This document shows positions 11,845 through 46,556 of a DNA stretch of 64,000 bases, in pieces. The DNA lies in NCBI RefSeq assembly GCF_003334255.1, contig NZ_QOWU01000024.1. One strand, 5' to 3'. The position numbers and the translations under genes were made by a program. Position 1 is the first letter of the stretch. The number at the start of each line of letters is the position of its first letter. This DNA is from Escherichia coli. GTDB lineage: Bacteria > Pseudomonadota > Gammaproteobacteria > Enterobacterales > Enterobacteriaceae. Below the pieces are notes generated by a model. The model saw only the letters and a program-made list of their open reading frames with translations, was not told the DNA's origin and did no database searches.

Positions 11845-11910
11845 AAATCAGCTTCCTGTTATTAATAAGGTTAAGGGCGTAATGACAAATTCGACAAAGC
11901 GCACAATCCG

Positions 11911-12013
11911 TCCCCTCGCCCCTTTGGGGAGAGGGTTAGGGTGAGGGGAACAGCCAGCACTGGTGCGAACATTAACCCTCACCCCAGCCCTCACCCTGGA
12001 AGGGAGAGGGGGC
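11911..12013. repeat. GC-rich interspersed intergenic repeat with inverted GGGAGAGGG / CCCTC motifs
   Basis: tcccctcgcccctttggggagagggttagggtgagggg with a second partial inverted copy (ccctcaccccagccctcaccctggaagggagaggggg); nearly identical to the reverse complement of the sequence at 19385-19424. Confidence 0.6.
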
Positions 12014-12171
12014 AGAACGGCGCAGGACATCACATTGCGCTTATGCGAATCCATCAATAATGCTTCTCATTTTCATTGTAACCACAACCAGATGCAACCC
12101 CGAGTTGCAGATTGCGTTACCTCAAGAGTTGACATAGTGCGCGTTTGCTTTTAGGTTAGCGACCGAAAATA

Positions 12172-15885: not shown

Positions 15886-17047
<1,162 letters not shown>

Positions 17048-17227
17048 ACCCGACAGAATTAGATGAGATTGCAGGAAAACTCGGTTAACGGAGTGATCGA
17101 GTTAACATTGTTAAGTTAAATATTGGTTTCAACTCCGATTTACATGGTTGCTGTGTTGTTAAATTGTACAAAGATGTTATAGAAACAAAATGTAACATCT
17201 CTATGGACACGCACACGGATAACAACT

Positions 17228-19333
17228 ATGAACAAATCAGGGAAATACCTCGTCTGGACAGTGCTCTCTGTAATGGGAGCATTTGCTCTGGGATACATTG
17301 CTTTAAATCGTGGGGAACAGATCAACGCGCTGTGGATTGTGGTGGCGTCGGTCTGTATCTATCTGATCGCTTACCGTTTTTATGGGCTGTATATCGCCAA
17401 AAATGTGCTGGCGGTTGACCCGACGCGTATGACGCCAGCGGTGCGCCATAACGACGGGCTGGACTATGTGCCGACGGACAAGAAAGTGCTGTTCGGTCAC
17501 CATTTTGCGGCCATTGCCGGAGCAGGTCCGCTGGTGGGGCCGGTACTGGCGGCGCAAATGGGCTACCTGCCGGGGATGATCTGGCTGCTCGCTGGGGTGG
17601 TTCTCGCCGGTGCGGTGCAGGATTTCATGGTGCTGTTTGTTTCTACGCGCCGTGACGGTCGCTCGCTGGGTGAGCTGGTCAAAGAAGAGATGGGGCCAAC
17701 CGCCGGGGTGATTGCGCTGGTGGCCTGCTTTATGATCATGGTCATTATCCTTGCAGTGCTGGCGATGATCGTGGTGAAAGCCCTGACTCATAGCCCGTGG
17801 GGAACATATACCGTTGCGTTCACCATTCCGCTGGCGCTGTTTATGGGGATCTACCTGCGCTATCTGCGTCCGGGGCGTATTGGCGAAGTGTCGGTCATCG
17901 GTCTGGTATTCCTGATTTTCGCCATTATCTCTGGCGGCTGGGTGGCAGAAAGTCCGACCTGGGCACCGTACTTTGACTTTACCGGCGTGCAGTTGACCTG
18001 GATGCTGGTGGGTTACGGTTTTGTGGCGGCGGTGCTGCCGGTGTGGTTACTGCTGGCCCCGCGTGACTACCTCTCTACCTTCCTGAAAATCGGGACTATC
18101 GTCGGTCTGGCGGTAGGCATTTTGATTATGCGCCCGACGCTGACCATGCCTGCGCTGACCAAATTTGTCGATGGCACTGGCCCGGTATGGACCGGTAACC
18201 TGTTCCCGTTCCTGTTTATCACCATCGCCTGTGGCGCGGTGTCTGGCTTCCATGCGCTGATCTCTTCTGGGACCACGCCGAAGATGCTGGCGAACGAAGG
18301 GCAGGCGTGCTTTATCGGCTACGGTGGGATGTTAATGGAATCCTTCGTGGCGATTATGGCGCTGGTTTCCGCCTGTATCATCGATCCGGGCGTGTATTTT
18401 GCCATGAACAGCCCGATGGCGGTGCTGGCTCCGGCAGGGACGGCGGATGTGGTCGCTTCTGCCGCGCAGGTGGTGAGTAGCTGGGGCTTTAGCATTACAC
18501 CAGATACGCTAAACCAGATTGCCAGCGAAGTGGGTGAACAGTCGATCATTTCCCGTGCGGGCGGTGCGCCGACGCTGGCGGTGGGGATGGCCTACATTCT
18601 GCACGGCGCGCTGGGCGGCATGATGGATGTGGCGTTCTGGTATCACTTCGCCATTTTGTTTGAAGCACTGTTTATTCTGACGGCGGTGGATGCAGGTACG
18701 CGTGCTGCGCGCTTTATGTTGCAGGATCTGCTGGGCGTGGTGTCTCCTGGCCTGAAGCGGACCGATTCACTGCCTGCTAACCTGCTGGCAACAGCGCTGT
18801 GCGTACTGGCGTGGGGCTACTTCCTCCATCAGGGCGTGGTCGATCCGCTGGGCGGCATTAACACTCTGTGGCCGCTGTTTGGTATTGCCAACCAGATGCT
18901 GGCAGGGATGGCGCTGATGCTCTGTGCCGTGGTGTTGTTCAAGATGAAACGTCAACGTTACGCCTGGGTGGCGCTGGTACCAACGGCCTGGCTGCTGATT
19001 TGTACCCTGACCGCAGGCTGGCAGAAAGCGTTTAGCCCGGATGCGAAAGTCGGCTTCCTGGCCATTGCTAATAAGTTCCAGGCAATGATCGACAGCGGCA
19101 ATATTCCGTCGCAGTATACTGAGTCACAGCTGGCGCAACTGGTGTTCAACAACCGTCTGGATGCCGGGTTAACCATCTTCTTTATGGTGGTCGTGGTGGT
19201 TCTGGCACTGTTCTCGATTAAGACGGCACTTGCGGCATTGAAAGATCCGAAGCCAACGGCGAAAGAAACGCCGTATGAACCAATGCCGGAAAATGTCGAG
19301 GAGATCGTGGCGCAGGCAAAAGGCGCACACTAA
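17228..19333 (+). CDS. cstA: Carbon starvation protein A, peptide/pyruvate transporter
   Basis: 701-aa polytopic membrane ORF recognised as CstA. Confidence 0.9.
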   Translation: MNKSGKYLVWTVLSVMGAFALGYIALNRGEQINALWIVVASVCIYLIAYRFYGLYIAKNVLAVDPTRMTPAVRHNDGLDYVPTDKKVLFGHHFAAIAGAGPLVGPVLAAQMGYLPGMIWLLAGVVLAGAVQDFMVLFVSTRRDGRSLGELVKEEMGPTAGVIALVACFMIMVIILAVLAMIVVKALTHSPWGTYTVAFTIPLALFMGIYLRYLRPGRIGEVSVIGLVFLIFAIISGGWVAESPTWAPYFDFTGVQLTWMLVGYGFVAAVLPVWLLLAPRDYLSTFLKIGTIVGLAVGILIMRPTLTMPALTKFVDGTGPVWTGNLFPFLFITIACGAVSGFHALISSGTTPKMLANEGQACFIGYGGMLMESFVAIMALVSACIIDPGVYFAMNSPMAVLAPAGTADVVASAAQVVSSWGFSITPDTLNQIASEVGEQSIISRAGGAPTLAVGMAYILHGALGGMMDVAFWYHFAILFEALFILTAVDAGTRAARFMLQDLLGVVSPGLKRTDSLPANLLATALCVLAWGYFLHQGVVDPLGGINTLWPLFGIANQMLAGMALMLCAVVLFKMKRQRYAWVALVPTAWLLICTLTAGWQKAFSPDAKVGFLAIANKFQAMIDSGNIPSQYTESQLAQLVFNNRLDAGLTIFFMVVVVVLALFSIKTALAALKDPKPTAKETPYEPMPENVEEIVAQAKGAH

Positions 19334-19340
19334 AGTCAGA

Positions 19341-19424
19341 GTGAGGGGGGGATGTTGGCGAATGTTGGCTTAGTGCCCAGGGTTCCCTCTCACCCTAACC
19401 CTCTCCCCGGTGGGGCGAGGGGAC
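19341..19424. repeat. GC-rich interspersed repeat, second copy in inverted orientation
   Basis: ccctctcaccctaaccctctccccggtggggcgaggggac; its reverse complement closely matches 11911-11948. Confidence 0.6.
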
Positions 19425-19450
19425 TGACCGAGCGCGTTGATAGCATTTGT

Positions 19451-19483
19451 AGGCCGGATAAGGCGTTCACGCCGCATCCGGCA
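19451..19483. repeat. REP (repetitive extragenic palindrome) element
   Basis: aggccggataaggcgttcacgccgcatccggc matches the canonical REP/PU consensus. Confidence 0.8.
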
Positions 19484-19515
19484 CTCTTTCAGCAACATGG
19501 TTAGCGGAGGCCAAG

Positions 19516-19713
19516 ATGTTTGATTCACTGGCAAAAGCCGGAAAATATTTAGGTCAGGCGGCGAAGCTGATGATTGGTATGCCTGATTACGACAACTATG
19601 TCGAACATATGCGGGTTAACCATCCCGATCAAACGCCGATGACCTACGAAGAGTTTTTCCGTGAGCGGCAGGACGCGCGCTACGGTGGAAAAGGCGGCGC
19701 GCGCTGCTGCTAA
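19516..19713 (+). CDS. ybdD: Small DUF466-family protein encoded immediately downstream of cstA
   Basis: 65-aa [35 protein letters not shown]; recognised as YbdD. Confidence 0.85.
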
Positions 19714-19722
19714 ATTTGTACG

Positions 19723-20811
19723 TCAGGCTTTAAACGATTCCACTTTTTTGAACGCTGCACGCAACGTATCTGGTGTCAGCGTGACTGGCAGGTAATGAAT
19801 GGACTCCACCGGACGCAGGGTGTGGGCAATCACTTTGTCGATCTCCGCCTGATTATTGATATCCACTTCCAGCTCCGCCAGTGTAGTCGGCAGATGAAAA
19901 CGCTGATACGCTCCAGTTAATTGCGCCAGCACATCATCCTGACCCAGCAAGGCGCTTTGCACCAGAATTCCGTAGGCGACTTTGGTGCCGTGGAGAAACT
20001 TCTCGGTTTGCGGCAGCACGGTCAGACCGTTATGCACGGCATGAGCTGCCGCCACACGCGTAAAACGATCGCCCAGACCACCAACCATCCCACCACCAGC
20101 AATAATAGCATCCACCACATCGCAAAATGATTGCGTTAACTGTTGATTTTGCTGATCGCTCAGCGCCTGTTCGCTACTGTTTAACAAGACGTCGCGAATG
20201 GCTTGCGCATTATTGATCCCCAGTCGCACGGTTAGCGGCAACGTTTCTGGTTGCGGAGCCAGCACCACCGCTTCATACCATTTCGCCAGCGTGTCACCGA
20301 TCCCCGCCAGCAGATATTGTTGCGGTGCATTGAGGATAATCTCCGGTTCCACCAGCACCATAAAATTGGCGTCGTCGAAAATCTCATAATGCAGCGCCTG
20401 TCCGGCATCATTATACCAGACGGAGAGCGGTGTCCAGGCGGCGCAGGTGGCGGCGATCGTCGGAACGGCAACAAACGGCAGACCGAGACGGCGGGCGAGG
20501 GCTTTCGCGGTGTCGAGCAGTGCACCGCCACCGACGCCAATCACCACGCTGCGGTCGTCACCGGACTCAGCCGCCAGTTGTTGTACATCGCTTTCGCTGC
20601 AATGACCGCGAAACAAAATATGCTTTGCCCCTGGCAGTCCAAACGCTGGCGGAAGTTTGGTTTGCGCCGCAGCAATGGCGCGTTTGCCGTAGATCCACAC
20701 CGCGCGAGAAAGTTGTTCATCAGTGAAAAAATCGTGCAGGTGATTGAAACTTCCTGGATGTGAAAAGTAGTTAGCCGGGCCGACGACCACGCGGATAGGA
20801 TTGTGAGGCAT
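19723..20811 (-). CDS. ybdH: Iron-containing (group III) alcohol dehydrogenase-family hydroxycarboxylate dehydrogenase
   Basis: 362-aa ORF recognised as YbdH (HcxA); GGG-rich NAD(P)-binding region. Confidence 0.85.
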   Translation of the reverse strand: MPHNPIRVVVGPANYFSHPGSFNHLHDFFTDEQLSRAVWIYGKRAIAAAQTKLPPAFGLPGAKHILFRGHCSESDVQQLAAESGDDRSVVIGVGGGALLDTAKALARRLGLPFVAVPTIAATCAAWTPLSVWYNDAGQALHYEIFDDANFMVLVEPEIILNAPQQYLLAGIGDTLAKWYEAVVLAPQPETLPLTVRLGINNAQAIRDVLLNSSEQALSDQQNQQLTQSFCDVVDAIIAGGGMVGGLGDRFTRVAAAHAVHNGLTVLPQTEKFLHGTKVAYGILVQSALLGQDDVLAQLTGAYQRFHLPTTLAELEVDINNQAEIDKVIAHTLRPVESIHYLPVTLTPDTLRAAFKKVESFKA

Positions 20812-20919
20812 GTTGTGTTGTCCTTATTGTTTTATTTAGACATCTAAACGTCTTGATTGCCAAATACTAGCATCGTGTTATAGTGCCTTCAACACGCAAC
20901 TTCGTCAGGTACAATAAAA

Positions 20920-22080
20920 ATGACAAATAACCCTCTGATTCCACAAAGCAAACTTCCACAACTTGGCACCACTATTTTCACCCAGATGAGCGCGCTGGCG
21001 CAGCAACACCAGGCGATTAACCTGTCGCAAGGCTTTCCTGATTTTGATGGTCCGCGCTATTTACAGGAGCGGCTGGCGCACCACGTTGCACAGGGGGCAA
21101 ACCAATACGCGCCCATGACCGGCGTGCAGGCCTTGCGCGAGGCGATTGCTCAGAAAACGGAACGTTTGTATGGCTATCAACCAGATGCCGATAGCGATAT
21201 CACCGTAACGGCAGGGGCGACGGAAGCGTTATACGCGGCGATTACCGCACTGGTGCGCAATGGCGATGAAGTGATTTGTTTTGATCCCAGCTATGACAGT
21301 TACGCCCCCGCCATCGCGCTTTCTGGGGGAATAGTGAAGCGTATGGCACTGCAACCACCGCATTTTCGCGTTGACTGGCAGGAATTTGCCGCATTATTAA
21401 GCGAGCGCACCAGACTGGTGATCCTCAACACTCCGCATAACCCCAGTGCAACTGTCTGGCAGCAGGCTGATTTCGCCGCTTTGTGGCAGGCGATCGCCGG
21501 GCACGAGATTTTTGTCATTAGCGATGAAGTCTACGAGCACATCAACTTTTCACAACAGGGCCATGCCAGTGTGCTGGCGCATCCGCAGCTGCGTGAGCGG
21601 GCAGTGGCGGTTTCTTCATTTGGCAAGACCTATCATATGACCGGCTGGAAAGTGGGTTATTGTGTTGCGCCAGCGCCCATCAGCGCCGAAATTCGCAAGG
21701 TACATCAGTATCTGACCTTTTCGGTGAATACCCCGGCACAGCTGGCGCTTGCTGATATGCTACGTGCAGAACCTGAGCATTATCTTGCGTTACCGGACTT
21801 TTATCGCCAGAAGCGCGATATTCTGGTGAATGCTTTAAATGAAAGCCGGCTGGAGATTTTACCGTGTGAAGGTACATACTTTTTGCTGGTGGATTACAGC
21901 GCGGTTTCTACCCTGGATGATGTTGAGTTTTGCCAGTGGCTGACGCAGGAGCACGGCGTAGCGGCGATTCCGCTGTCGGTGTTTTGCGCCGATCCCTTCC
22001 CACATAAACTGATTCGTCTCTGTTTTGCCAAGAAGGAATCGACGTTGCTGGCAGCAGCTGAACGCCTGCGCCAGCTTTAG
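20920..22080 (+). CDS. ybdL: PLP-dependent aminotransferase (methionine-oxo-acid transaminase)
   Basis: 386-aa ORF of the class I aminotransferase family (SFGKTYHMTGWKVGY lysine region). Confidence 0.85.
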   Translation: MTNNPLIPQSKLPQLGTTIFTQMSALAQQHQAINLSQGFPDFDGPRYLQERLAHHVAQGANQYAPMTGVQALREAIAQKTERLYGYQPDADSDITVTAGATEALYAAITALVRNGDEVICFDPSYDSYAPAIALSGGIVKRMALQPPHFRVDWQEFAALLSERTRLVILNTPHNPSATVWQQADFAALWQAIAGHEIFVISDEVYEHINFSQQGHASVLAHPQLRERAVAVSSFGKTYHMTGWKVGYCVAPAPISAEIRKVHQYLTFSVNTPAQLALADMLRAEPEHYLALPDFYRQKRDILVNALNESRLEILPCEGTYFLLVDYSAVSTLDDVEFCQWLTQEHGVAAIPLSVFCADPFPHKLIRLCFAKKESTLLAAAERLRQL

Positions 22081-44854: not shown

Positions 44855-44884
44855 AAAACCCGCTTAATCAGCGGGTTTTTTTTG
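44855..44884. terminator. Bidirectional rho-independent terminator between cspE and crcB
   Basis: aaaacccgc ttaatca gcgggttttttttgg: 6-bp GC stem flanked by an A-run and a T-run, between convergent genes. Confidence 0.75.
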
Positions 44885-46523: not shown

Positions 46524-46556
46524 CAAAAAACCCGCTTCAAAAAGCGGGTTTTTTAT
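46524..46556. terminator. Bidirectional rho-independent terminator between tatE and lipA
   Basis: aaaaaacccgctt caaaa agcgggttttttat between convergent genes. Confidence 0.75.

Follow-up and report, generated by a model that had tools for sequence, protein, structure and literature searches.

The window analysed here is a stretch of 64,000 nucleotides (64 kb) of E. coli K-12 DNA in which cstA, encoding a pyruvate/peptide transporter, is followed by ybdD, encoding a small protein of the PF04328/DUF466 family (Table 1). Positions are those of the window, and MG1655 coordinates are obtained by adding 612,666. Both genes are required for the same pyruvate uptake, and cstA is induced in late exponential and stationary phase. 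The gap between them (19334-19515) is exactly 182 nt in both the open reading frame (ORF) list and the RefSeq annotation, as the first-pass annotation had stated. The GGAGG sequence in front of ybdD lies outside every repeat and is unchanged in all aligned E. coli alleles. On its other side ybdD converges with hcxA (ybdH). The two stop codons are separated by 9 nt (19714-19722) without a terminator, so that the hcxA transcript must cross ybdD and the repeat block in the antisense direction. A ybdD-hcxA gap of 8-9 nt is specific to Escherichia; in Citrobacter and Salmonella 48-191 nt separate the two genes. A small ORF of 50 aa (19352-19504) was considered as a gene and rejected, being composed of repeat sequence and having its frame broken by strain indels (10-nt, 6-nt, 29-nt and larger). 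Elsewhere in the window two palindromes of the form AAAACCCGC-loop-GCGGGTTTTTTT are found 1.6 kb apart (44855-44882 and 46525-46552) and resemble bidirectional intrinsic terminators, and a direct repeat of 62 nt (73% identical, 63373-63434 and 63583-63644, 210-nt spacing) may be gene-internal.

Table 1. Features of the cstA-ybdD region and of the fepB-entC reference copy, in window coordinates.
Feature	Position	Strand	Sequence and remarks
BoxC inverted pair at fepB-entC, type A unit	11913-11948	+	reference copy of the first-pass annotation
BoxC inverted pair at fepB-entC, type B unit	11975-12010	-	reference copy of the first-pass annotation
cstA CDS, pyruvate/peptide transporter	17228-19333	+	upstream gene; ORF list; RefSeq b0598
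Left (type-B-like) BoxC unit remnant, last G-tract	19340-19352	+	GAGTGAGGGGGGG; from comparison with intact K-12 BoxC pairs
Stem-loop H1 (predicted)	19340-19396	+	
10-bp tandem duplication	19352-19371	+	ATGTTGGCGA / ATGTTGGC(TT); within central spacer of BoxC-pair module; from strain alignment
BoxC/PIT/TMECO type-A unit	19386-19421	- (G-rich strand)	CCCTCGCCCC-ACC-GGGGAGAGGG-TTA-GGGTGAGAGG
BoxC core hairpin in cstA-ybdD mRNA (predicted)	19399-19421	+	CCCUCUCCCC-GGU-GGGGCGAGGG
Conserved 3' flank of BoxC module	19422-19440	+	GACTGACCGAGCGCGTTGA; fepB-entC inverted repeat runs through it
Single Y-type REP palindrome, GTAG at 5' end	19449-19483	+	GTAGGCCGGATAAGGCGTTCACGCCGCATCCGGCA; RNA hairpin about 19451-19485
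ybdD Shine-Dalgarno sequence	19506-19510	+	GGAGG, ends 5 nt before ATG; read from sequence
ybdD CDS, 65 aa, PF04328/DUF466	19516-19713	+	downstream gene; ORF list; RefSeq
hcxA (ybdH), convergent with ybdD	19723-20811	-	ORF list; RefSeq

By its sequence the GC-rich element in the spacer is a copy of BoxC (Bergler, 1992; Bachellier, 1999), also known as PIT (Hoyne/Maher, 2000), TMECO (Holder, 2015, PMC4666352) and HPGQ or HPG1 (Kaplan, 2016, PMC5100583). A repeat finder paired 19386-19439 with 11895-11948 in the fepB-entC region as an inverted repeat of 54 nt with 83% complementarity, and the minus strand of 19386-19421 fits the 36-nt TMECO/BoxC type-A consensus, with the first loop left free, at a single mismatch (scored against CCCTCGCCCCNNNGGGGAGAGGGTTAGGGTGAGGGG), a match not found once in 100 shuffles of the 64-kb window. 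The earlier reading of the element as an inverted copy of the one at fepB-entC is thus borne out. As the G-rich strand is the minus strand it serves as template for cstA-ybdD transcription, and the mRNA has the C-rich version. BoxC is a dispersed, multi-copy family: three units, all intergenic, lie in the window, and in 5,411 E. coli genomes a 61-nt query found between 1 and 23 places each, with a median of 14. The two fepB-entC units are TMECO nos 7 and 8 of Holder (2015, PMC4666352). The cstA-ybdD copy is absent from the 23 TMECOs in Table 1 of that study, probably because its third tract carries an additional G-to-A change, and is tabulated by Kaplan (2016, PMC5100583) as HPGQ no. 19 at 632058(-), 51 nt from cstA and 108 nt from ybdD. 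In agreement with this the minus strand carries four runs of at least three G with short loops (GGGG-AGA-GGG-TTA-GGG-TGAGA-GGG), i.e., a putative quadruplex.

Comparison with intact BoxC pairs indicates that 19340-19440 as a whole is a BoxC inverted-pair module, made up of a central spacer, the right unit and its flank, with the left unit cut to GAGTGAGGGG. The segment 19340-19385 represents what remains of the left half, and the share of the module that is kept is the right two-thirds of an inverted pair. The BoxC pairs at ygfF-gcvP, alx-sstT and fepB-entC can be aligned with both the central spacer and the GGGGACTGNCNGAG flank, and flanks like 19422-19440 are also found at alx-sstT, at ygfF-gcvP and in Pseudocitrobacter, and are kept in the B2/ST131 allele. 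The G-tract that remains of the left unit is conserved across all Escherichia alleles compared; as the 5' arm of stem-loop H1 it begins 6 nt past the cstA stop codon and pairs with 19386-19396 in the predicted fold.

The fepB leader at the reference copy has a strong Term-seq 3' end of its own at 12014 (MG1655 624,680, minus strand), classified as 'orphan', with 103,563 reads in LB at OD 0.4; it borders the type-B BoxC unit on the upstream side (Adams et al., 2021, PMC7815308). This points to early termination or processing of the iron-regulated fepB transcript at BoxC.

The second repeat in the spacer is a REP palindrome, located after BoxC as previously described. It matches the REP pattern exactly, with no match in shuffled sequence, and is a palindrome that folds at -21.1 kcal/mol (z = -4.8), none of 200 shuffles being as stable. 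It is also multi-copy: the REP-bearing part of the query (positions 103-154) matches other unannotated E. coli loci at 92-100% identity, and REP places number at least 8-53 per genome in E. coli genomes. A BIME cluster requires at least two REPs, and only one is found in the spacer, as in the whole 64-kb window. In a permissive Rfam search of 17000-21000 nothing matched BoxC, and the lone match was naRNA4 on the REP, at 38 bits under a threshold of 59.5; naRNA4 is presumably a REP-derived family. The REP starts 116 nt past the cstA stop codon, and about 30 nt separate it from the ybdD ATG. REP-dependent stalling of translation is reported to need a REP no more than about 15 nt from the stop codon (Liang, Rudd and Deutscher, 2015), and the distance at cstA is far greater; H1, 6 nt past the stop, is not a REP.

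The K-12 spacer is a mosaic of two known dispersed families, a partial BoxC pair module and one Y-type REP, which together account for about 135 of its 182 nt. The limits given earlier for this block, 19341-19483, are accurate, and the description of the spacer as almost entirely repeat is roughly right, a conclusion reached only after comparison with the other K-12 BoxC pairs.

The cstA-ybdD locus is present in all 5,426 complete E. coli genomes, with four forms of the spacer. BoxC and REP are found together in about 68% (172-182 nt; K-12, O157), BoxC without REP in about 8% (133-153 nt; VCSW7 type), REP without BoxC in about 2% (127 nt; KOr021 type) and neither repeat in about 22% (112 nt; ST131 and other ExPEC-like strains); these percentages are rough, being derived from coverage counts and evenly spaced sampling, and the forms were defined on fetched and aligned examples. 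One or both repeats are therefore missing from about 32% of the genomes, and the REP from about 30%. The YbdD protein is identical (WP_000460431.1) in nine fetched alleles covering all four forms. With YbdD unchanged and the repeats missing so often, BoxC and REP are each dispensable. The alignment also revealed indels within the repeat block, i.e., a 6-bp deletion and the 10-bp duplication, which is found in K-12, O157, CX05 and VCSW7 and not in 2020N21-246, NRG857C or GPEC856. The neither-repeat allele still has two hairpins (z -3.4), and it retains the BoxC flank, which suggests that the core was deleted. Its B2/ST131 version carries a hairpin, AAGCCCTC-N9-GAGGGCATTTG, like the one in Citrobacter and Salmonella; a REP occupies that place in other Escherichia, E. 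albertii among them.

Other Escherichia species have H1 and the REP and lack the BoxC core, from which it was at first inferred that BoxC had inserted in E. coli. This proposal is weakened by the finding that H1, present in all Escherichia, matches the centre of a BoxC pair, and an ancestral BoxC pair followed by lineage-specific decay seems at least as likely as an insertion. The history of the spacer alleles bears no simple relation to the species tree.

The cstA-ybdD pair is conserved in 77 Enterobacteriaceae species with a median spacer of 63 nt (range 14-195). A stable stem-loop (MFE <= -18.6 kcal/mol) was found in 74 of the 77 spacers, 64 of these 74 having z < -2 against dinucleotide shuffles, and the remaining three spacers leave no room for a hairpin. 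In most cases 16-25 nt separate the end of the main stem from the ybdD ATG, and a T-run follows the stem in only 10 of 74. What fills the position differs between lineages: simple hairpins resembling the BoxC core are found in 20 spacers, full BoxC units or pairs in 12, REP-like elements in 16 and other hairpins in 26. When 21 short spacers were aligned with MAFFT/RNAalifold the hairpins were out of register or non-homologous, and the cross-species conservation rests on folds of individual sequences rather than on covariation. The spacer of the paralogous btsT-yjiX pair (49 nt) likewise has one GC hairpin, with a T-rich tail. The position of an intercistronic stem-loop is thus kept across Enterobacteriaceae and in btsT-yjiX, filled by different families. 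These hairpins could reflect repeats preferentially landing in, or growing from, pre-existing hairpins rather than selection. Full BoxC inverted pairs occupy the same spacer in Enterobacter, Pseudocitrobacter, Leclercia, Phytobacter and Pluralibacter (loci L020, L023, L037, L069, L070 and L076); their G/C tails point outward, opposite to the 'tail-in' arrangement in E. coli, and the folds reach -64 to -90 kcal/mol. Four loci whose taxon labels are unrelated or vague, a 465-bp contig labelled Streptomyces sp. DH24 (L014), a Bacillota MAG (L040) and two Proteobacteria MAGs (L054 and L072), carry an Enterobacteriaceae-type ybdD or cstA-ybdD with 88-98% protein identity, and the labels likely reflect contamination or mis-binning in public assemblies.

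Folding predicts a row of three GC-rich stem-loops in the mRNA of the spacer, formed in turn by H1, the BoxC core and the REP; the BoxC region (19383-19428) folds at -20.6 kcal/mol. None of the three is followed by a U-run, the tails being ACUGACCG after BoxC and CUCUUUCAG after the REP. The z-scores of H1 plus BoxC (+0.28) and of the whole spacer (-1.75) are no better than those of shuffles because the composition is so GC-rich; shuffles of such composition fold equally well, so that fold energy by itself is no evidence. Scans of 19000-20000 revealed no intrinsic terminator and no sigma-70 promoter. In a relaxed sigma-70 scan of 19200-19440 the best candidates had only 7 of 12 matches, e.g., TAAAGT over the cstA stop codon, and for this reason no ybdD promoter is claimed in the spacer.

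In published Term-seq data a single RNA 3' end falls within the block. It lies at 632,098(+), i.e., 19432, and was observed only in LB at OD 2.0, where its average count is 1686 (Adams et al., 2021, PMC7815308). This position lies 11 nt past the BoxC core hairpin, upstream of the REP and 84 nt before the ybdD ATG. It is the sole curated Term-seq 3' end on either strand between 631,900 and 632,699, and the 3' base of the REP lies about 50 nt further on; across the three conditions of that study and above its read-count cut-off, no curated end falls at the REP on either strand in this interval. The count is low and the end is seen in one condition, which fits the induction of cstA in stationary phase. 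The first-pass annotation had pointed out that REP elements can stabilise upstream mRNA, suggested that the block may set the cstA to ybdD expression ratio, and proposed a search for processed cstA 3' ends at the REP. The principle that stem-loops in an operon spacer can protect upstream mRNA is established and a 3' end does lie within the block, but the end is at BoxC and not at the REP. The suggestion is partly supported, in a weaker form that concerns stem-loops generally. Given the filter applied by Adams et al. (2021, PMC7815308), a mapped transcription start should lie 21-200 nt ahead of the 3' end, i.e., within 19232-19412; it could stem from a promoter close to ybdD or be the 5' end of a processed RNA. 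If this start is real, the end at 19432 might belong to a short separate transcript.

Inhibition of Rho revealed two Rho termination regions, one at 632,836(+) that lies antisense to hcxA and one at 631,994(-) that lies antisense to the end of cstA (Adams et al., 2021, PMC7815308). They correspond to 20170 (+) and 19328 (-) at a resolution of only about 800 nt; the minus-strand region (Rho score 4.5) lies just past H1. Plus-strand transcription passes through ybdD and stops Rho-dependently around 632,836. As both regions lie inside the opposite gene, the convergent cstA-ybdD and hcxA transcripts overlap, and neither has a terminator of its own. Curated Term-seq ends are also found 3-5 nt past the core hairpin of at least four other BoxC copies, at 3,781,065(+), 4,231,270(-), 847,200(-) and 3,959,467(-), in either orientation of the element, one of them being the 'primary' end of lldD. 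This supports a role for BoxC in general as a barrier at the RNA level.

We lean towards the view that the stem-loops of the spacer act as generic exonuclease-barrier hairpins which are interchangeable between families, and we infer this to be the most likely role of the block. The stem-loops would be passive barriers against 3'-to-5' exonucleases, such that transcripts cleaved or terminated further downstream would be trimmed back to a hairpin, leaving a stable cstA-only RNA that ends at 19432. The read-through RNA would carry ybdD with its own GGAGG ribosome-binding site. In this way the block may affect the stoichiometry of CstA and YbdD, a ratio that could matter given that the same pyruvate uptake depends on both. 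A precedent is found in stem-loops without a U-tail that define and protect the 3' ends of Rho-terminated mRNAs (Dar and Sorek, 2018). It is tempting to extend the argument to BoxC at large, as a general RNA 3'-end-defining and protective stem-loop that is interchangeable with REPs or plain hairpins at a conserved place between the two cistrons, from which the amount of the DUF466 partner (YbdD or YjiX) would be tuned relative to the CstA-family transporter. Hints in this direction are the at least five copies with curated 3' ends 3-11 nt past the hairpin and the hairpin in 74 of 77 species. This wider proposal is speculative and on balance rather unlikely. We know of no accepted function of BoxC since 1992, and earlier work on BoxC/PIT found neither an effect on expression in vivo nor a positional bias relative to genes.

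It is possible, though we consider it doubtful, that BoxC and REP are neutral passengers which accumulate and decay in a permissive gap without any selected role, and that the end at 19432 arises incidentally in the course of decay. The four presence/absence alleles with identical YbdD in those examined, the small indels inside the block, and a K-12 spacer that is far longer than the family median all point this way, as do the unusual degree of rearrangement of BoxC loci between strains (Holder, 2015, PMC4666352) and the lack of an expression effect of BoxC elsewhere. On the other hand 74 of the 77 species have a stable stem-loop, no E. coli allele lacks one, not even that with neither repeat, and the paralogous btsT-yjiX operon has a hairpin as well, which is hard to explain in an unconstrained spacer. 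The REP might alternatively be the effective element, stabilising a cstA mRNA that ends at the REP and lowering ybdD expression in the manner of malE-malF. It is the most clearly structured element of the spacer, at 30 nt from the ybdD ATG it occupies the place of the hairpin in most species, and REP stabilisers are well documented. That the observed 3' end is at BoxC with none at the REP in three growth conditions, that about 30% of E. coli genomes lack the REP, and that it lies 116 nt past the stop, reportedly too far for translation stalling, make this the least likely of the readings considered.

Two further explanations place the effect outside the cstA-ybdD transcript. The G-rich minus strand of BoxC may form a triplex or a G-quadruplex that stalls polymerases and destabilises the locus (Holder, 2015; Kaplan, 2016). 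Stable triplex formation in vitro, demonstrated with consensus BoxC oligonucleotides only, and the more frequent rearrangement of BoxC loci than of controls (Holder, 2015, PMC4666352) are in line with this, as are the four G-tracts for which the present copy was listed as a putative quadruplex (Kaplan, 2016, PMC5100583) and the high polymorphism of the locus, including the deletion of the BoxC core with retention of the flank in B2 strains. However, in vivo footprinting detected no triplex at a tested BoxC copy (Holder, 2015, PMC4666352), and the copy at cstA-ybdD, whose third tract bears the additional G-to-A change, was missed by the triplex finder. The end at 19432 comes after the motif and not at its entry, and so lacks the signature of a template block, and instability would in any case be a side effect rather than a function; an explanation at the DNA level is therefore unlikely. 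Still less likely is that the REP, BoxC and H1 palindromes serve the opposite strand by stabilising the antisense 3'-UTR of hcxA ahead of Rho termination. The hairpins of REP and BoxC fold on both strands, the minus-strand Rho region maps just past H1, and the 8-9 nt ybdD-hcxA gap is restricted to Escherichia, the lineage that also expanded the cstA-ybdD spacer. But the 631,900-632,699 interval contains no curated minus-strand 3' end, the Rho region is resolved only to about 800 nt, and the stem-loop position is kept where hcxA is distant or absent as well as in the co-oriented btsT-yjiX-yjiA.

Compared with other members of its family, the cstA-ybdD copy of BoxC shares the three-tract sequence, the intergenic location, and the flank and inverted-pair architecture of fepB-entC, ygfF-gcvP and alx-sstT. 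It differs in that its left unit is reduced to the last tract directly past the cstA stop codon, in having a second imperfect triplet, created by the G-to-A change of the third tract, and in its location inside a probable two-gene transcription unit with an RNA 3' end just downstream. The REP is a typical Y-type REP/PU element (Stern, 1984; Gilson), i.e., an extragenic, 35-nt imperfect palindrome with a 5' GTAG and many near-identical copies, and like the malE-malF stabiliser (Newbury, 1987) it lies between co-oriented, functionally linked genes. Unlike the REP stabilisers it is single rather than part of a BIME, has no public 3' end and is missing in many strains. With the stem-loops of Dar and Sorek (2018) it is the BoxC hairpin that shares a GC-rich stem, no U-tail, a precise 3' end a few nt downstream and Rho termination further on, at about 632,836, although the present stem-loop is located between the genes of one functional unit and not at the end of the unit. 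The btsT-yjiX spacer similarly has a GC-rich stem-loop in the gap between a CstA-family transporter gene and its DUF466 partner; there, however, the gap is 49 nt and contains a single unique hairpin with a T-rich, terminator-like run and no dispersed repeats.

Both repeat families as well as the BoxC copy between cstA and ybdD are already known, and as it stands the finding is of little consequence for the biology of K-12. The natural allele series with both repeats, BoxC only, REP only or neither is ready material for the study of intercistronic repeats in a two-component transporter, and a stem-loop of one family or another is kept between the genes of CstA-family transporters and those of their small partners. 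If BoxC hairpins do mark RNA 3' ends genome-wide, this would give BoxC a role at the RNA level.
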